Shown here piece by piece: positions 1 through 8,088 of a DNA stretch of 14,399 nucleotides. This stretch comes from a virus. Taxonomy: Duplodnaviria; Heunggongvirae; Uroviricota; Caudoviricetes. Position numbers and translations under genes: made by a program. The stretch covers positions 1 through 14,399 of IMG/VR virus record IMGVR_UViG_2711768167_000007. The stretch is one strand, 5' to 3'. Position 1 is the stretch's first letter. Each line of letters starts with the position of its first letter. The notes under the pieces are model-generated. The model was not told the origin of the DNA, did not search any database, and saw only the letters and a program-made list of their open reading frames with translations.

Positions 1-1104
1 ATGAAAAATTTAACAGTGGCACTTTCTGCTGTAGCAGCATCAGTATTTCTGGCAATGTCTGCAAATGCAGCAGAAATATATAATAAAAACAGTAATAAAC
101 TGGATTTATATGGCAAAGTAGGGGGTAAACATTACTTTTCTTCTAACGCCAAAGAAGAAGGTGATGGAACTTATGCCCGTCTTGGATTCAAAGGTGAAAC
201 CCAAATCAACAATCAGTTAACTGGTTTTGGTCAATGGGAATATGAATTCAAAGGCAACAAGGCAGAAAAAGATGGCTCTGCAGGAGACAAAACCCGTCTG
301 GCATACGCTGGCCTGAAACTAGAAAATATTGGCTCTCTGGATTATGGTCGTAACTATGGCGTGGTGTATGACGCATTAAGCTATACTGATGTCCTCCCTG
401 AATTTGGGCCTGGTTCTGTTAACGGGGATAACTTCTTCGTGGGTCGTGTAGGTGGTGTTGCCACTTACCGTAATACCGACTTCTTCGGTCTGGTTGATGG
501 ACTGAACTTTGCGGTTCAGTATCTGGGTAAAAATGAGCGTGACAATGCAGGCACTTCAAACGGCGACGGTGTTGGCGGCTCTGTCAGTTATGAATATGAA
601 GGCTTTGGTTTTGTAGCTGCATATGGTGCAGCCGATCGCACCAATGCACAGGAAGCGACGACTTTTGGTAAAGGTAAAAAAGCTGAACAGTGGGCTACCA
701 GCGTAAAATATGACGCGAATAATCTGTACCTGGCAGCCACTTATGGTGAAACACGTAATACCCGCGCAATCAAGTACTCGCCCGGCGGCTACAACGGTGT
801 AGCCAATAAAACTGAAGATTTCGCTGTAGTTGCACAGTATCAGTTCGACTTTGGTTTGCGCCCGTCTCTTGCTTATATCCAGTCGAAAGCCAAAGACCTT
901 TCCACCAAAACTGGTATCCCTGAAAAACATAATGACGGATACATTGAAAAATTCATTGAAGTCGGTGCTGCTTATTACTTCAACAAAAATATGTCTACAT
1001 ACGTAGACTATAAAATCAACCTGCTTGATAAGAATCAATTCACTGAAAGAACTGATGTATTAACCGATGATATTGTCGCTGTTGGTTTGACTTATCAGTT
1101 CTGA
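1..1104 (+). CDS. Outer-membrane general porin, OmpC/OmpF/PhoE family (prophage-borne NmpC/Lc-like)
   Basis: ATG at position 1. Predicted signal peptide [23 protein letters not shown] then AEIYNK. Conserved porin blocks ([94 protein letters not shown]) and C-terminal ...VGLTYQF with terminal Phe typical of beta-barrel outer-membrane proteins. Position next to Q matches nmpC in DLP12 and lc in PA-2 (recalled). Confidence 0.9.
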
Positions 1105-2192: not shown

Positions 2193-3053
2193 TCATTGCT
2201 CACACTCCCCAACCAGATTGAGTATGACCGCAGCGCTATTGTCTTTCATATATTCGCCCTTTCCGCTTGCCAAAAACCAACGACACACCTCCACGGCTTC
2301 AGCCCGTGTCACCGGTTTGATGGTCATCAGCAATTTTTCAAGGTAGCGCTCGCGGTCATATACCGATTCGTGATGCTCAAAGTAACCAAACTCATCGCCC
2401 TGTTCTTTAGTTGCAGTGTGGCGAACACTGTAGAGCCAGTCCCAGTAAACAAACTCACGAACTACGTCTGACAATGTATGAGGCTCTGGCAGTACATCAC
2501 GATAGCCATCAACATATGCACGACGCTGATCATCAATTTCATTCATACGGATGCCGTCAATTCTGCCCGCTTTCTTCTCGGCTGCAGTCCAGCCCCAGAG
2601 ATGATCGTCGATAAATTTCTGGGAAGACTTGATCACTCGCTCGGCTTCCACATCTTCGAGTGCTGCTTCATAGCTACCAAACGTAGCCCTGACTGATGCT
2701 GCTTTTTTGATATTCTCCCGGGCGATCCTGATTGCCTGTGCCGGGTTATCCATGCCGATGGTACCGAAAGCAATCTGGAAAGGATCGCCACCATTCGCCA
2801 GCAGATAACGCGAATAGCGTTCCTGGGCCTCTTTTGGGGATATTTTAATTTTCACCAGCGCGGCCTCAGCAGCATCCAGATGTGCGGGTTCGTTCAGACG
2901 GATAACCTCCAGTACCCAAAGATAAGCATCAGTCTGCTTATGCCCGGTGATTCTCCGTTGCTCTGGCAGGGGTTTGATGTTTGCGAGGGCGGAGCTGTAC
3001 GCTGCCGTCGGGATGGTGAATAGTGCTTTATGTTCGTTGTTATCAGTACGCAT
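2193..3053 (-). CDS. Hypothetical phage protein (nin-region position), 286 aa
   Basis: Long ORF with ATG start; its start overlaps the stop of the upstream primase-like gene (TAATG). No family recognised by eye. Confidence 0.55.
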   Translation of the reverse strand: MRTDNNEHKALFTIPTAAYSSALANIKPLPEQRRITGHKQTDAYLWVLEVIRLNEPAHLDAAEAALVKIKISPKEAQERYSRYLLANGGDPFQIAFGTIGMDNPAQAIRIARENIKKAASVRATFGSYEAALEDVEAERVIKSSQKFIDDHLWGWTAAEKKAGRIDGIRMNEIDDQRRAYVDGYRDVLPEPHTLSDVVREFVYWDWLYSVRHTATKEQGDEFGYFEHHESVYDRERYLEKLLMTIKPVTRAEAVEVCRWFLASGKGEYMKDNSAAVILNLVGECEQ

Positions 3054-4021
3054 TACGCAGCCGCCTTTTTCTTATGGAAAACCAGCTCCCGAACCTGATC
3101 ACCGTTCATGAGCATATTGTTGAAATCATCGTGATCCGGCCAGTACACGCTCACGCGCTGCAGGTCATTCTTTGCCATCAGATTGGCATGAGCACATTCG
3201 CAAGCCGCAGCCAGCCCGGTGGCGCTGTTCTCGTCACGGTCGGCAAAAATAATCAGGTGCAGAACACCAGCTGGTACGCGGAACTTTTTCATAAAGCCGC
3301 TGTTAATGGTTGCCCAGGTGTTCACGTTATAAATCTGGTGCGCTGACAGCGCTGTTTCGATGCCTTCGGCGATACCCAGAGTGCTGGCGACAGGAAACAT
3401 GCGGATAGCTACAGAACGAGCGTGATCCAGATAGTTATCTTCCTGCAGGGATTTTAGGCGCTTTGCACTGCTACCGATATCTGCTTTTTTATCACCATCA
3501 AGCAGGGTCTGGTGCAGATAGCACAGCTCCCCTTTATCGTCCGTAGCAAGTGAATAAAGAGACTGGAACACACTCCCGTTGTGTCTCTGCCTGGCATTGA
3601 ACCTGATCGCCTCAGCAGGAAGACTGAATATTCCACGAGAATTAAGATACGCGGCGCCGGATGTACCACGCAGTGCCTCCAGTTTTGAAAACTTGCTCAA
3701 TACCCGTTTGCGTAAGCTGGTGGCGCTGCTGGTTACCGGGATTTTAACCCGTTGGTAATTATTACCGATCAGGCGGTCTATTTCGGTACAAATCACGTTA
3801 AATGGCTTCGCCTGTGTCAGGGTGACAAGTTTCATACCATCGCCACTACCACATACACAGATCCACGTTCCTGCACCGTCGCGGTCGTCAATTCGGAACT
3901 TGCCACGTGCACCGCATACCGGGCATTCACCCTTAAAGTGATTTTTTCCGGTTATCGGCGGCAGACCGAAGTGCTCTAATATTTCAGGCCAGCGGCCTTT
4001 CGCTGCATCTGCTGTTTTCAT
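3053..4021 (-). CDS. Primase-like protein with N-terminal zinc-binding motif and Toprim domain
   Basis: CPVCGARGKFRIDDRDGAGTWICVCG zinc-ribbon-like motif near the N-terminus and an acidic Toprim-like block LIIFADRDENSATG. Start lies 2 nt after the helicase stop (translational coupling). Confidence 0.75.
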   Translation of the reverse strand: MKTADAAKGRWPEILEHFGLPPITGKNHFKGECPVCGARGKFRIDDRDGAGTWICVCGSGDGMKLVTLTQAKPFNVICTEIDRLIGNNYQRVKIPVTSSATSLRKRVLSKFSKLEALRGTSGAAYLNSRGIFSLPAEAIRFNARQRHNGSVFQSLYSLATDDKGELCYLHQTLLDGDKKADIGSSAKRLKSLQEDNYLDHARSVAIRMFPVASTLGIAEGIETALSAHQIYNVNTWATINSGFMKKFRVPAGVLHLIIFADRDENSATGLAAACECAHANLMAKNDLQRVSVYWPDHDDFNNMLMNGDQVRELVFHKKKAAA

Positions 4022-4022
4022 C

Positions 4023-5681
4023 TTACTGACTCAGACTGTTTATATTTTTCTGGAGTTGTTGCTTTGCCTGCATAATGCGCCAAGCCTCACTTTCTTCCGG
4101 TGGAACATACCGGCCACCAACAACCAGTGGCAGAGAAAGCACTTCGGATGAGTTTTTCGTCATCCTCCGTGTCCGTTCACGACCTTTAGCAAACCGGATC
4201 AGCTTGTGTCTGATGTAGTTACTTACCTCTGGGCTTATTTCCATCGGGAAACTGCTCAACCCATCAGGCCATTCACCGAATTTCTCCCTGAAAGTGTGAG
4301 CGCACCATCCATCACTGACTGGACGCCCCAGTGAGGCACGCTGGCGCTGATAAAATTTGATCTGACTCCACCAGGCCTGTTTCTCTGCCTTCGTGGACTG
4401 ATGCTGATTTTTACCCAGCTTATTAAGTTTGCGGCTAGTGTCAGTATCAACGTCTTCACCTCGCAGCGGCTTGTGTCCACATTTCGGGCAAACATAGACG
4501 CCAGCTGGCTTCATGTAGTGGCATTGAGGGCATTCATGTGGCAATTTTTCGGCCCGTTCCTCAACTGCGCGGCGCGTGCTTTCCTCCATGCCGTCAGACT
4601 TACCGGGAAGATCGTCGTACTCGATTGAATCCGGATAACCCAGACGGTGCACGGTGCCGCTGTGATCGAAGATAAGGCAGGACGCTTTACCCGGTGCGGT
4701 GCGAAGTCCACGCCCGAGTGCCTGCAACCAGCGAATTTCGCTTTTTGTTGGCCTGGCGTAGATGATGCAACGAACGTCACTATCGAATCCGGCTACCAGA
4801 ACGCCCACACTAACGATGATTTTCGTTGCACCGGTTTCAAAGCGGTGAATGATGGTCTGGCGCTCATCTACCGGAGTGTCGGCGGTCATTACCTCAGCGT
4901 TAACACCCGCCAGGTTAAACTGGATTGTCAGATAATTGGCGTGAGCTACGTTGACGCAGAAAGCGATGGTAGGTAAATCCCGACCATTCTCCAGCCAGTT
5001 CTGTACGATGTCGCCCACCAGCGTAGAGCCGCACATGATTTCAGCCAGCTGCGTTTCGTTGTAATCCCGGCCGTACTCAAGCGAAGATGTGGTTTTAACA
5101 CCTTTCAGATCCGGCTTAGTTGGCGCGTAAAATTCGTATTTACTCAGATCGCCACGCTGGATTAACTCGCCGATGGTGGTCGGCTTAATCAGTCGGTCAT
5201 AGTATTTGCCCAGGAACGGAGAAAACGGAGTACCCGACAGGCCAATCACCTTTACGCCTTTGCCGCGCAGACGTTCGATATCCTTCAGGATGCGTTTTTT
5301 ACGCAGGTGCGCTTCGTCGATAATCAGCAGATCGATATTTTCAGGAAAAACACGACGAATAAGCGTGTCAGCGCTGGCAATCTGAATTTTCCGGTCCGGA
5401 TCGTAGTTCGGGTGATCCGCCCAGATATAACCGATTTCATCTCCAGGTAAACCATACTGCACGAACCGATTAGCCGTCTGACCAATCAGGATGGTGTACG
5501 GAACACAGAACAGAACGCGCATACCACGGCTGACAAAACCAGCAACTATGAAGGCTGCCAGACCCGTTTTACCGCTACCGGTTGGCGAGTACACCATGAA
5601 AGTGTCGTTTGCCTTCCAGTCACGGCGCAACATGTTTAACGCTCGTTCCTGTGCAAAATTCGGCGTGATCGTCAGCTCCAT
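4023..5681 (-). CDS. SF2 (DEAD/DEAH-box type) helicase with C-terminal zinc ribbon; putative replicative helicase of the prophage
   Basis: Walker A VYSPTGSGKTG, motif II LLIIDEAHL, motif III LSGTPF, motif VI QALGRGLR, and CPQC...CPKC zinc ribbon in the C-terminal extension. Occupies the position lambda O/P would take, between the cII-position gene and the nin region. Confidence 0.85.
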   Translation of the reverse strand: MELTITPNFAQERALNMLRRDWKANDTFMVYSPTGSGKTGLAAFIVAGFVSRGMRVLFCVPYTILIGQTANRFVQYGLPGDEIGYIWADHPNYDPDRKIQIASADTLIRRVFPENIDLLIIDEAHLRKKRILKDIERLRGKGVKVIGLSGTPFSPFLGKYYDRLIKPTTIGELIQRGDLSKYEFYAPTKPDLKGVKTTSSLEYGRDYNETQLAEIMCGSTLVGDIVQNWLENGRDLPTIAFCVNVAHANYLTIQFNLAGVNAEVMTADTPVDERQTIIHRFETGATKIIVSVGVLVAGFDSDVRCIIYARPTKSEIRWLQALGRGLRTAPGKASCLIFDHSGTVHRLGYPDSIEYDDLPGKSDGMEESTRRAVEERAEKLPHECPQCHYMKPAGVYVCPKCGHKPLRGEDVDTDTSRKLNKLGKNQHQSTKAEKQAWWSQIKFYQRQRASLGRPVSDGWCAHTFREKFGEWPDGLSSFPMEISPEVSNYIRHKLIRFAKGRERTRRMTKNSSEVLSLPLVVGGRYVPPEESEAWRIMQAKQQLQKNINSLSQ

Positions 5682-6094
5682 TGTGCAGCTCCCGTGCTGA
5701 TGAGATAATAATTTTGTGATGTGGTTTTCATGGATTCCCCCTCACATGGCTGGTGGCCTCCCCAAAGGCTGCCAGCCTCCCTTCTGATTCAGCTCCTCTG
5801 AAAAATCACTCTTCCAGGAAGAATCCTTTTCGTTTCTCAGCGCCTGAGCGCTTTGTACTACCTTGCTGATACGGGCGTTTTTTTAAATTGCGCCCTTAAG
5901 ACAGTGATCTACTTAACCAATGGATCTCTCCTGTTGGAAAAGACCCTATTCCTGCCCCAACACCCAATCCCCCCTTACCCCCCTTACCCTCTTCCCCATA
6001 AAAACGTACTACTTCCCTAGTACACATGAGGAGTTGGGTCAGTTGGTTGCCAACCTGAACAGGCACCTTTAAGCCTGCTTCTGTTCGGGTACCT
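5682..6094. other. Structured 413-bp intergenic region upstream of the helicase gene (candidate promoter and/or replication-origin region)
   Basis: Non-coding gap inside an otherwise tightly packed operon. Contains imperfect direct repeats GGCTGGTGGCCTCCCC (5748-5763) and GGCTGCCAGCCTCCC (5767-5781), a palindrome AGGCTGCCAGCCT (5766-5778), a hairpin GTACTA-N6-TAGTAC (about 6005-6022), a palindrome GGTTGCCAACC (about 6044-6054) and a C-rich tandem-repeat tract. Function is inferred, not shown. Confidence 0.35.
5971..5988. repeat. Tandem 9-mer CCCCTTACC x2 inside a C-rich tract (5955-5997)
   Basis: Direct reading: ccccttacc (5971-5979) immediately followed by ccccttacc (5980-5988), flanked by further C runs. 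The minus strand here is G-rich with at least four G runs. Confidence 0.8.
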
Positions 6095-6403
6095 TTAAAC
6101 CCGAAACAATGAGGAGCGCGATTGCGATCCAGCCAGGGGAGGTTCGGCTGTATACCCCTGTAAAGCTCTGCCCTGATTTCTTACAAACAGGCGGAGCCTT
6201 GTGTTTGCTTCGTGCCTTGCTCTGTTCTCCTTGCGGAATGAAACAGGCTCAGCGTCAAAAGTGATTTCGTATACCTCCGCATATTTCAGGGCAACCTTCC
6301 GTCTCAGTGACGGAGGCAGCCCCTGTAACTGCTGCTGAATCCACTCTTCGTCTGCCTGGCAGTACCTAGATGGCATCTCTGTCTGAACGTAATTCTGGGA
6401 CAT
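6095..6403 (-). CDS. Hypothetical protein at the cII position (possible regulatory protein), 102 aa
   Basis: ATG start 12 nt downstream of the Cro-like gene's stop. Identity not recognised; call rests on position only. Confidence 0.5.
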   Translation of the reverse strand: MSQNYVQTEMPSRYCQADEEWIQQQLQGLPPSLRRKVALKYAEVYEITFDAEPVSFRKENRARHEANTRLRLFVRNQGRALQGYTAEPPLAGSQSRSSLFRV

Positions 6404-6415
6404 ACAAGCCCTTCA

Positions 6416-6688
6416 TCATTCGTTTTTCATAACTGCCGCATTTGTGGCTGTGTGACTTCTACGTAACAAATCAGGGATTGCATCTTCAGGATGGGGATAA
6501 AGATCTGGTCTTAACCCATGAGGAGTAACTTTCCATTCCACAACTTCACATACACGCAAGACGAAACGAGCAGGAATTGTTCTTTTTGAAAACCATTGGT
6601 TCACAGCTTGCGGCGTAACGCCTAGATTTCGCGCTATGGCATTTTGTGCAATTAGCTCACGAAGTGCGTCGTAATCATTTCCTTTCAT
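6416..6688 (-). CDS. Cro-like / YdaS-type helix-turn-helix regulator, 90 aa
   Basis: Small protein with HTH-like segment RNLGVTPQAVNQWFSKRTIPARFVLRV. Transcribed divergently from the CI-like repressor across an operator-bearing intergenic region. Confidence 0.75.
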   Translation of the reverse strand: MKGNDYDALRELIAQNAIARNLGVTPQAVNQWFSKRTIPARFVLRVCEVVEWKVTPHGLRPDLYPHPEDAIPDLLRRSHTATNAAVMKNE

Positions 6689-6822
6689 CGCAACCCACCA
6701 ATCTAAACTTTATAAATTCAAGATTACATCAAGTTTAAATTAACATGCAAGTCCACAAAAGATCGAATACACTAAAATCAAGTAAAAATTTATCGAAACC
6801 AAGTAACCAGCAAGGATTAACA
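6689..6822. promoter_or_regulatory. Divergent immunity promoter/operator region (oR-like) between Cro-like and CI-like genes
   Basis: AT-rich 134-bp gap between divergent HTH genes. ATCAAGT motif at 6728-6734 and 6777-6783; the 13-mer aaatcaagtaaaa (6775-6787) recurs beyond the repressor gene at 7540-7552. Confidence 0.55.
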
Positions 6823-7512
6823 ATGAAAAACTTAAAGAGCACTGAAAATCGAATTACAAAGCTGCTACAGGAGAAAGGCTGGAGCCAAGCAGAGCTGGCC
6901 CGAAAGTTAGGTGTCAGCGCACAGTCCGTACAGTACTGGACAACAGGAAAAACATTTCCAAGGGGAAACCGGCTTGCCCAGTTATCCGAAATAAGTGGTT
7001 ATCCGCAATCGTGGTTTTTAGGAGAAATCACGTCACGGCAGTTCTCTTCAAAGGAAAAACATCAAGCAAGAACTGACAGTGTGGTCTTTAACGTGCTCGA
7101 TGTTGAGTTTAGTTGCGGCGATGGAACACATGTCCGTGGGGACTTTATCGATGTAGTTCGCTCAATCGAGCTTGATCCTGAATATGCCCGTCGCCTTGTT
7201 GGCAATAGAGCATTTCAAAACATAGAGATTGGTAACGCAAGAGGAGATAGTATGGCTCCAACAATAGCCCCAGGAGATCTTCTTTTTCTCGATAAAACAG
7301 TGAATTACTTTGATGGTGATGGCATTTATGCTTTTTGCTTTGATGGTGAATGCTACGTCAAAAGATTACAAAAGATAGGAAGTAAAATCATGGTGTTATC
7401 TGATAACCCAAATTACCAATCCTGGAGCATTGAAAAAGATGCTCTTGAGCTGCTTTATATCCAATCGAAGGTAATATCATCTGTTCCATTCAATATAAAT
7501 AGATTTGGTTAA
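6823..7512 (+). CDS. CI-like prophage repressor (N-terminal HTH-XRE, C-terminal S24 LexA-type peptidase domain)
   Basis: HTH segment GWSQAELARKLGVSAQSVQYWTTGKTFP; S24 catalytic motifs GDSMAPT (Ser) and VKRL (Lys). Start chosen at the ATG at 6823 (RBS AGGA about 6 nt upstream) rather than the track's 6745 ATG, because 6745-6822 carries the operator repeats. Confidence 0.85.
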   Translation: MKNLKSTENRITKLLQEKGWSQAELARKLGVSAQSVQYWTTGKTFPRGNRLAQLSEISGYPQSWFLGEITSRQFSSKEKHQARTDSVVFNVLDVEFSCGDGTHVRGDFIDVVRSIELDPEYARRLVGNRAFQNIEIGNARGDSMAPTIAPGDLLFLDKTVNYFDGDGIYAFCFDGECYVKRLQKIGSKIMVLSDNPNYQSWSIEKDALELLYIQSKVISSVPFNINRFG

Positions 7513-7659
7513 TTATTTATTATTAAAGAAAAAATTTACAAATCAAGTAAAAGAGACGCAGAAATCAATTTTTTCTTGACAACCCCATCAATCAAGATCT
7601 AACATCACACCATCAATTTTAACTTGATTTGTTGTTAATTTTAAATTGATGGTGATTCA
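7513..7659. promoter_or_regulatory. oL/pL-like promoter-operator region driving the plus-strand early operon
   Basis: ATCAAGT at 7542-7548, ATCAAG at 7591-7596 and inverted CTTGAT at 7623-7628. TTGACA at 7576-7581 with TAACAT 18 bp downstream (7600-7605). Perfect 12-bp inverted repeat CACCATCAATTT (7608-7619) / AAATTGATGGTG (7643-7654) overlapping the start region of the next gene. Confidence 0.5.
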
Positions 7660-8088
7660 ATGAAAGATCTGACAACCACTGAGATATCGAACTTAAACCA
7701 CTTCGAAAAAGAATCCTTTGCATTAAATATTGCAAATCTGGTAGGTGCTGCTCGTACTTTCCATTTAATTGATGGTGATCGCTCTAAAGAATTGGGGTTT
7801 GAAGTCATGGAGTTTGTTCATGAATACGCCCTGTCTGCTACTTATCCATTACATAATCACATAATCAACAAACAACCAAATAAAATCCGCACCCAACGCG
7901 AAGCCTGCGGCTTAACAACCGCCGAACTCGCCAGGCTGCTCGATCTCGATGAAGAAATTATCATCCAGTGGGAAAGCGGAGAGTACGAACCAACCATCAG
8001 CATGCTTATCCCTCTGGCTAATGTTCTTGGCTGTGATCCAATGTTGTTATTGACTGATGCTTATAAACAAAATCAGGAGGAAGCATAA
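7660..8088 (+). CDS. HTH-XRE DNA-binding protein with uncharacterised N-terminal domain, 142 aa
   Basis: C-terminal segment IRTQREACGLTTAELARLLDLDEEIIIQWESGEYEPTISMLIPLANVLGCDPMLL is a typical XRE-family HTH; the N-terminal 70 aa are unrecognised. First gene after the oL-like region. Confidence 0.65.
   Translation: MKDLTTTEISNLNHFEKESFALNIANLVGAARTFHLIDGDRSKELGFEVMEFVHEYALSATYPLHNHIINKQPNKIRTQREACGLTTAELARLLDLDEEIIIQWESGEYEPTISMLIPLANVLGCDPMLLLTDAYKQNQEEA

Follow-up and report, generated by a model that had tools for sequence, protein, structure and literature searches.

Many enterobacterial prophages, including the Shiga-toxin (Stx) phages of highly virulent Escherichia coli, carry an Eru1-type module in place of the lambda O and P genes (PMC8044961). 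Where does such a module begin its replication? The question is raised by the stretch of DNA analysed here (the window; 14,399 nucleotides (nt) of IMG/VR record IMGVR_UViG_2711768167_000007), the early region of a lambdoid E. coli prophage with a single operon on the minus strand. A gap of 413 nt (5682-6094) in this operon lies between the gene for a 102-amino-acid (aa) protein of unassigned function (phrog_852; 6095..6403, minus strand), which adjoins it, and the gene for an Eru1A-like SF2 DEAD/DEAH helicase (4023..5681, minus strand), beyond which an Eru1B-like toprim primase with a zinc ribbon is encoded (3053..4021, minus strand). Eru1A and Eru1B were defined in Stx phages as a helicase-primase replication unit, and neither that report nor its follow-up describes an origin or a non-coding element of Eru1 (PMC8044961). 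We propose that the region from about 5806 to 6105 is a cis-acting origin region of the module made up of the 102-aa protein, the helicase and the primase. Judged from sequence comparison, this reading has a probability of roughly 0.5, and we infer that the element is the best candidate for the module's unmapped replication origin.

The gap and its conserved element

An earlier note on the window had singled out the gap as the only large non-coding one in the minus-strand operon and as a candidate origin or regulatory hub. It is indeed the largest intergenic space of the operon, and it is non-coding: the open reading frames (ORFs) inside it reach only 50-56 aa and are broken in phage YP3 by single-base indels in T and G runs. 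The full-length gap was found in 42 complete E. coli genomes and also in three phages isolated on other genera, namely Fostie (92.5% identity), Yersinia YP3 (93%) and Cronobacter ENT39118 (88%). Aligned across four phages of four host genera it is 94% identical per aligned column, more than the end of the neighbouring gene, and the occurrence of single-base indels in its T and G runs despite this identity indicates that no reading frame is maintained. The palindromes and hairpins that the note had reported are real, with nine inverted repeats in the gap and a predicted folding better than that of 200 out of 200 shuffled sequences on both strands (z-scores of −4.2 and −3.9, values that do not tell the two strands apart). 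A scan of the gap against Rfam 15 returned no match at gathering thresholds and only chance-level matches at E-values up to 10, a tRNA scan found nothing, and a promoter and terminator scan detected no sigma-70-like promoter and, as its one terminator-like structure, a weak plus-strand hairpin that corresponds to hairpin B (described below) read backwards.

The surroundings of the gap were compared across Enterobacterales in 80 loci encoding a relative of the helicase, sampled at one genome per species. In 77 of the 80, the helicase is preceded by a homologue of the 102-aa gene, with a spacer of at least 184 and at most 1509 nt between the two. From the end of the 102-aa gene to the start of the element the distance is always 40-170 nt; where the spacer is long, additional genes occupy only the stretch from the element to the helicase. 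The 102-aa gene had been described by its cII position. Being upstream in 77 of 80 loci with the element in between, it is a constant member of the replication module and not a cII analogue. The expectation that the region would be conserved among phages sharing the helicase-primase module was thus borne out in the relatives examined, where the element is both conserved and linked to the 102-aa gene, the helicase and the primase.

The gap consists of two parts, the conserved element (~5806-6105) and a leader of ~125 nt (5682-5805) before the helicase. The minimal arrangement is that of a Pantoea prophage, whose whole spacer measures 330 nt and aligns with window positions 6023-5806, the alignment ending 22 nt before the helicase ATG. 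The leader is common only to Fels-1, phi467, the locus L030 and a few others, where it follows an extra gene of 122 aa. This division changes the grounds on which the gap can be called a candidate origin or regulatory hub. The proposal itself is strengthened by the relatives, while the iteron-like repeats and the AT-rich stretch on which it had been based sit in the lineage-specific leader, which is missing from minimal relatives, and are for the most part not what matters.

Read along the sense strand, the parts of the element come in the following order. One or two hairpins with a UUAAAGGU loop, present in a single clade, are followed by a palindrome, often by a T-run, and by a G-rich core that reads GGGGAAGAGGG and then GGGGGG(T/A)AAGGGGGG. 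Past the core, a box (CTTTTCCAACAG or GGCnnnGCCAAG) precedes two GATC sites contained in GGTTARGTAGATC; an A-run follows, then a second palindrome ~150-170 bp from the first and, in several lineages, TTCCTGGAAGAGTGA. In the window, the T-run (GTTTTTAT on the sense strand; 5998..6005, minus) stands between the upstream palindrome and the core, and in 40 of 64 unique elements the 60 nt before the core include a run of at least four T. The GATC pair (5900..5927, both strands; GATC at 5906 and 5923) includes a conserved box, GGTTAAGTAGATCACTGTC (5900-5918), a 13-mer of which is exact in ~40 loci, that of Stx phage PA2 included. GATC is about threefold enriched, at 1.94 per core vs a background of 0.62 elsewhere in the same loci, and at least one is present in 63 of the 64 unique elements. 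Next to the pair lies a hairpin of GGGCG, an A-rich loop and CGCCC (5873..5895, minus), whose two arms differ in a compensatory way in Fels-1 (GGGCA/TGCCC); in 50 of 64 elements at least five consecutive A occupy this position. The TTCCTGGAAGAGTGA box (5806..5820, minus) is the sequence that in the minimal Pantoea locus ends 22 nt before the helicase ATG.

In one subclass of elements (L005, L008, L028, L072, L074, L077 and L081), a GAA-loop mini-hairpin with fully compensated stems (GTGCGAAGCAC, GCGCGAAGCGC and GCCCGAAGGGC) follows the G-tract at a distance of ~25-45 nt. GCGAAGC is an unusually stable DNA hairpin known from the origins of single-strand phages.

Could the gap simply be the remnant of a decayed gene, or hold small-protein genes or a small RNA gene? 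This is very improbable. Such an explanation would draw on the 122-125-aa gene that Fels-1, phi467 and PA2 have between element and helicase, on the leader (5682-5805) that is common to those relatives, and on two small ORFs annotated in the gap region of Fostie. Against it, every ORF of the gap is broken by indels, nucleotide conservation is above that of the flanking genes, the conserved block lies upstream of the 122-aa gene in the relatives having it, neither a promoter nor an Rfam match is found, and tblastn of the upstream region, which includes the gap, reveals no trace of the 122-aa protein in the window or in any other locus lacking that gene.

What speaks for an origin, besides linkage, position, core conservation and GATC enrichment, is the gene content around the element. 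No homologue of O or P was found among the window proteins, no other replication gene in whole phage genomes of the Eru1 type (records of 37-42 kb), and no repeats within the helicase or primase genes. In Vibrio phage 1.148.O (locus L004, 2380-2530), four or five AT-rich repeats of the form TACCGTATAYRAGTATT, together with a RepL-annotated gene, sit between the 102-aa homologue and the helicase, a classical iteron arrangement in the same slot. Also counted for the origin are the confinement of the core to this gene context, its predicted quadruplex and hybrid properties, the sense-strand hairpins and the motifs at the flanks, to which the following sections are devoted.

The G-rich core

In the window the core is GGGGAAGAGGGTAAGGGGGGTAAGGGGGGATTGGGTGTTGGGG (5955..5997, minus), with its G6-TAA-G6 part at 5969-5983. 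Reading GGGGAAGAGGG..GGGGGGTAAGGGGGG on the sense strand, it is what had been noted as a C-rich tandem repeat, and Tandem Repeats Finder recovers it as such (5969-5989, period 9, CCCCCCTTA). The G6-TAA-G6 15-mer is exact in 42 of 86 loci, from distant genera that include Serratia, Proteus, Morganella, Photorhabdus, Xenorhabdus, Yersinia and Pantoea, and the G-rich strand is always the sense strand. The association with this gene context was also seen in viral contigs, of which 89 containing the 15-mer were analysed: the helicase lies downstream of it in 18, and the 102-aa gene upstream in 17 of these, the remaining contig ending 68 nt before the motif. The other contigs, without the extended motif, are chance matches; the extended motif is confined to this gene context.

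Two calculated properties set the core apart from the rest of the window. Positions 5955-5997 form the sole canonical G-quadruplex motif in the 14.4 kb and have the top G4Hunter score (2.4). For the 41-nt stretch 5944-5984, an RNA-DNA hybrid is calculated to be 19 kcal/mol more favourable than the duplex, which puts it five standard deviations away from the mean of the window; its hybrid-minus-duplex free energy is the lowest in the window, well ahead of other segments on both strands.

These properties invite comparison with origins at which the transcript itself opens the DNA. The ColE1 (RNA II) and mitochondrial CSBII origins rely on G-runs in RNA, the CSBII form being G6-A-G8. Phage T4 oriF and oriG fire from R-loops, in which the transcript of an upstream promoter forms a persistent hybrid, opens the duplex and primes synthesis (PMC3016281). 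The element resembles such origins in its two G6 runs on the non-template strand, in the folded RNA upstream of them and in being the most hybrid-favouring segment of the window. Lying inside the early-right operon, its G-rich, hybrid-favouring non-template strand is downstream of a promoter, and a structured RNA on the sense strand, as would be expected of a pre-primer, is found for the hairpin-bearing clade only. It differs from them in that the hybrid was shown there and is predicted from sequence here, in having a distant early promoter rather than a dedicated one, in an SF2 helicase and toprim primase where T4 has the gp41/gp59 helicase and loader, and other origins host Pol I and RNase H, and in its repressor-like flanks, which have no counterpart there.

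A lambda-like iteron origin is a second point of reference. Lambda ori, whose iterons are inside gene O, shares with the element a place in the early-right operon, adjoining replication genes and a dependence on rightward transcription, and the Vibrio relative has true iterons. In contrast to lambda ori, the element is intergenic and is without multi-copy iterons, an AT-rich region or homologues of O and P. Where three or more direct repeats would be expected of an iteron origin, the gap has only two-copy families, and 60-nt windows overlapping the gap are of 40%-60% GC, with short A/T runs only and no AT-rich unwinding element.

The closest described relatives are the Eru1 Stx phages TL-2011c and PA2. 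PA2 has a helicase 66% identical to the one in the window, a primase of matching type, a homologue of the 102-aa gene, a G5-TAA-G5 tract and a GGTTAGGTAGATC box; it differs in having an extra 125-aa gene and none of the TrpR-like or MetJ-like sites described below. The published account of Eru1 differs from ours in covering genes and no non-coding element.

Hairpins, flanking palindromes and the case for an origin

Does the element act as RNA or as DNA? The hairpins argue for the transcript or a single strand. Hairpin A (6084..6105, minus) has the stem TTCGGGT/ACCCGAA and hairpin B (6058..6079, minus) the stem AGCAGGC/GCCTGTT, both around the loop UUAAAGGU; hairpin B is a member of a direct-repeat family in the gap. 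The UAA stop codon of the 102-aa gene (6095-6097) forms part of the loop of hairpin A, which suggests that a terminating ribosome would sit on and melt this hairpin. The family comprises 32 unique hairpins with 19 stem variants and a constant loop of 8 nt, and its seven stem positions hold 184 Watson-Crick pairs, 25 G·U pairs and no A·C pair. This asymmetry between 25 G·U and 0 A·C means that selection on the structure acts in the sense strand, be it at the level of RNA or of single-stranded DNA. A candidate partner of the AAAGG of the loops is the box CTTTTCCAACAG (5931..5942, minus), whose CTTTTCC could pair with them; it is present in 33 of 33 loci with hairpins and absent from 31 of 31 without, an association confounded by shared ancestry.

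The same features would be expected if the element were an RNA cis-regulatory leader of the replication operon and not an origin, acting ahead of the helicase on how the early-right mRNA is read through, stabilised or processed; in one version, the Arg-rich 102-aa protein might bind the hairpins as lambda N binds boxB. We regard this as the main rival of the origin reading, if an improbable one. It would account for the covarying stems and the invariant 8-nt loop, the stop codon inside the loop of hairpin A, the upstream palindrome and following T-run, which resemble a weak terminator, the G-rich strand that is always sense, and the Arg-rich motif ENRARHEAN, invariant in the 102-aa family. It leaves aside that the hairpins are limited to one clade while the G-rich/GATC core is general, and that GATC enrichment acts at the level of DNA, as do the flanking palindromes by the behaviour of their half-sites. 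Rho acts poorly on G-rich RNA, and the gap has no Rfam match. A put or nut site would be expected to have a second copy in the leftward operon; no second copy of the UUAAAGGU loop motif was found elsewhere in the window, that operon included, and the sole exact copy is in the gap.

Lambda nutR/boxB and the HK022 put RNA are the nearest known parallels, sharing with the element hairpins past an early gene, an invariant loop on a variable stem and an Arg-rich protein encoded next door. They differ in that the 8-nt loop is not like a GNRA pentaloop, that no boxA was seen and that the left operon has no copy; the combination of boxA and boxB pentaloop in both early operons that defines N-utilisation sites is not found at the element. 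The 102-aa protein itself gave no Pfam, NCBIfam or PDB match, and its AlphaFold model of three helices (pLDDT 58) was too poor for a fold search. Its kinship with lambda N or with TrpR was considered and dropped, hhalign giving a probability of 0.3% for each.

The palindromes on either side of the core point to double-stranded DNA, their half-sites varying without compensation. The upstream one, GTACTAGGGAAGTAGTAC (6006..6023, both strands), differs by one mismatch from GTACTAGNNNNCTAGTAC and resembles a TrpR operator; the downstream one, GTATCAGCAAGGTAGTAC (5855..5872, both strands), 151 bp away, is a weaker likeness with three mismatches. A search of the window with the TrpR palindrome GTACTAG-N4-CTAGTAC gave two matches against 0.18 expected, and these two flank the core. 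As a reference, the trp operator CGAACTAGTTAACTAGTACG, which 5421 of 5426 E. coli genomes carry upstream of trpL, has one mismatch to the palindrome. Other natural TrpR operators span a range of mismatches within which, in our judgement, one and three both fall.

In Proteus, Morganella, Photorhabdus, Serratia and others, both flank positions are occupied instead by tandem 8-bp repeats, for example GGACGTCT AAACGTCT GGATGG, which match the met box of MetJ, whose consensus is AGACGTCT (PMC4239095). Among the 64 unique elements, both flanks are TrpR-like in 25 and MetJ-like in 14, three combine a TrpR-like upstream with a MetJ-like downstream site, 12 have one recognisable site only and 10, with Stx phage PA2 among them, have neither type. 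The flanks contain 3.6 TrpR-like and 2.6 MetJ-like sites per kb; at the threshold used, a control of 250 kb from the same loci contained none of the former and three of the latter (0.012 per kb). Twelve other E. coli transcription-factor motifs, DnaA, IHF, CRP, Fur, ArgR, TyrR and PurR among them, were at background in the flanks. LexA boxes in the Pectobacterium/Brenneria variants were tempting by eye and proved to be at background frequency on counting.

What binds these sites? The 102-aa protein was tried as a binder and rejected: the type of site follows neither its clusters nor any other protein family with a gene no more than 2.5 kb away. The prophage of VR50 (L001), whose gap is 99.8% identical to that of the window, has a different immunity region (compared with window 6416-8088), a pattern that shows mosaic exchange right at the boundary of the 102-aa gene. 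Given that no nearby phage protein tracks the sites, and that the VR50 gap is kept beside a different immunity region, binding of the flanks by host TrpR or MetJ is the simplest reading. A known case of this kind is the cer site of ColE1, at which a mobile element recruits the host repressor ArgR, by demonstrated binding, for a task other than transcription. The likeness lies in a host amino-acid repressor at a cis-acting DNA site of a mobile element, with binding predicted here; the differences are that cer is a recombination site rather than an origin and that the repressor is another one.

If host repressors do bind, transcriptional control might be the sole function, with TrpR- and MetJ-like operators acting as roadblocks or on an internal promoter and so coupling helicase-primase expression to amino-acid status, or with the sites titrating host repressors at high phage copy number. 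Two host-repressor motifs at fixed positions, with a specific and very large enrichment, are what this would predict, and loci that mix TrpR-type and MetJ-type sites suggest interchangeable modules. We nevertheless hold it to be unlikely: TrpR operators overlap the promoters they repress, and the gap has no sigma-70-like promoter; 10 of 64 elements, that of PA2 included, are without either site type; and the deeply conserved G-rich/GATC core between the sites would be left unexplained.

The reading of the element as an origin accommodates both levels, and the alternatives are not fully exclusive of it, a transcription-activated origin being naturally both a DNA site and a structured transcript. 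Such an origin would probably be switched on by transcription, by way of an R-loop, with host repressors as modulators. After induction, the transcript of the early rightward promoter would pass cro and the 102-aa gene and enter the element, where the nascent RNA would fold into the UUAAAGGU-loop hairpins. As polymerase crosses the core, the G-rich RNA would stay on the C-rich template and the displaced G-rich strand may form a quadruplex, hybrid and quadruplex together opening the duplex without an AT-rich unwinding element or DnaA. The module proteins could then assemble at the opened core, the first primer coming from the RNA or from the primase. Host repressors on the flanking palindromes, TrpR here and MetJ elsewhere, would tie firing, or transcription into the element, to the amino-acid state, and the GATC pair may add control by Dam and SeqA. 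In its full form, an origin with a G-quadruplex/R-loop core that TrpR or MetJ licenses or blocks at interchangeable flanking operators, this scheme is doubtful, and every step beyond conservation and linkage is inferential.

Several points weigh against an origin or its proposed mechanism. The element contains no AT-rich unwinding element, no DnaA boxes and no multi-copy iterons, and its sense-strand RNA structure fits a regulatory RNA equally well. G6-TAA-G6 is degenerate in Fels-1, in phi467 and in the most distant modules, and the calculated hybrid preference depends on the nearest-neighbour parameters adopted from the literature. The downstream TrpR-like site, with its three mismatches, is weak, and it is by sequence similarity that TrpR and MetJ are nominated at all. 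Searches of the literature for an origin of Eru1 or Fels-1, and for TrpR or MetJ sites in phages, returned nothing relevant.

An origin next to phage replication genes is of a known kind. What appears to be undescribed is a G6-TAA-G6 core found across Enterobacterales, with interchangeable TrpR-like and MetJ-like flanks and without iterons, DnaA boxes or an AT-rich unwinding element. With a candidate narrowed to ~300 nt, in which the G-runs, the GATC pair and both palindromes can each be mutated, the origin can be put to a direct test. If the R-loop/quadruplex mechanism is true, the element would be a tractable bacterial model of origins of the ColE1, T4 and mitochondrial type; if TrpR or MetJ binds, it would represent a new way for a phage to read host metabolism, and lytic replication, with toxin gene dosage in the Stx relatives, would be wired to the tryptophan or methionine/S-adenosylmethionine status of the host.

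The helicase leader and neighbouring genes

The repeats in the leader that had been described as iteron-like (5748-5762 and 5767-5781) exist in two copies only and make better sense as a single inverted repeat with the arms GGCTGGTGGCCT/AGGCTGCCAGCC (5748..5777, both strands), which is absent from the minimal gaps of relatives. Its mismatches are A·C when read on the sense strand, equivalent to G·U when read on the plus strand. Within it is a perfect Chi sequence, GCTGGTGG (plus strand, 5749-5756), which Fels-1 and phi467 have retained and ENT39118 has lost (GCTGGCGG).

The AT-rich stretch next to the helicase start is in the place described, with an AT-richness that is only mild (43% GC), and coincides with an upstream ORF of 19 codons, MKTTSQNYYLISTGAAQWS (5672..5731, minus). 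This ORF has a strong Shine-Dalgarno sequence of its own, and its stop codon TGA overlaps the helicase ATG at 5681, an overlap present in the window, Fostie, ENT39118, phi467 and Fels-1. It suggests translational coupling, and the short ORF is probably coupled to the helicase in this way. In YP3 the ORF is shortened to 12 codons. Its first seven codons agree to the nucleotide in all of these sequences, so that the constraint may not act on the peptide.

The gene of 122-125 aa (phrog_1347, function not assigned) is present or absent between element and helicase in otherwise similar modules; carriers include Fels-1, phi467 and PA2, and its coordinates are 3096-3464 in locus L008, 2521-2889 in L005 and 2627-3004 in L003. 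The PA2 copy, of 125 aa, has a weak restriction-endonuclease-like Pfam match (E = 0.037). A match of TTCCTGGAAGAG to the N-terminus of the 122-aa protein was considered and set aside: the minimal Pantoea and Yersinia loci carry this sequence 22-40 nt before the helicase, and it is therefore better read as an ancestral non-coding box.

The operon begins, in the order listed, with a Cro-like protein (6688-6416, minus), ahead of the 102-aa gene, and a gene for a CI-like repressor is transcribed divergently from it. The helicase matches the Pfam families ResIII, DEAD and Helicase_C and has RadD as its best NCBIfam match; the primase was likewise assigned by domain matches. Beyond the primase come a 286-aa protein, RusA and Q.

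Several "plasmids" of 37-42 kb from Klebsiella, Enterobacter and Morganella (L209, NZ_CP076549.1, and similar PLSDB records) amount to complete phage genomes, integrase included, and were probably captured as excised circles. Just beyond Q, the window holds a complete porin gene (1-1104, plus strand; Pfam Porin_1, E = 7e-127). It is likely a lysogenic-conversion gene, and VR50 has an annotated ompC at the equivalent position.

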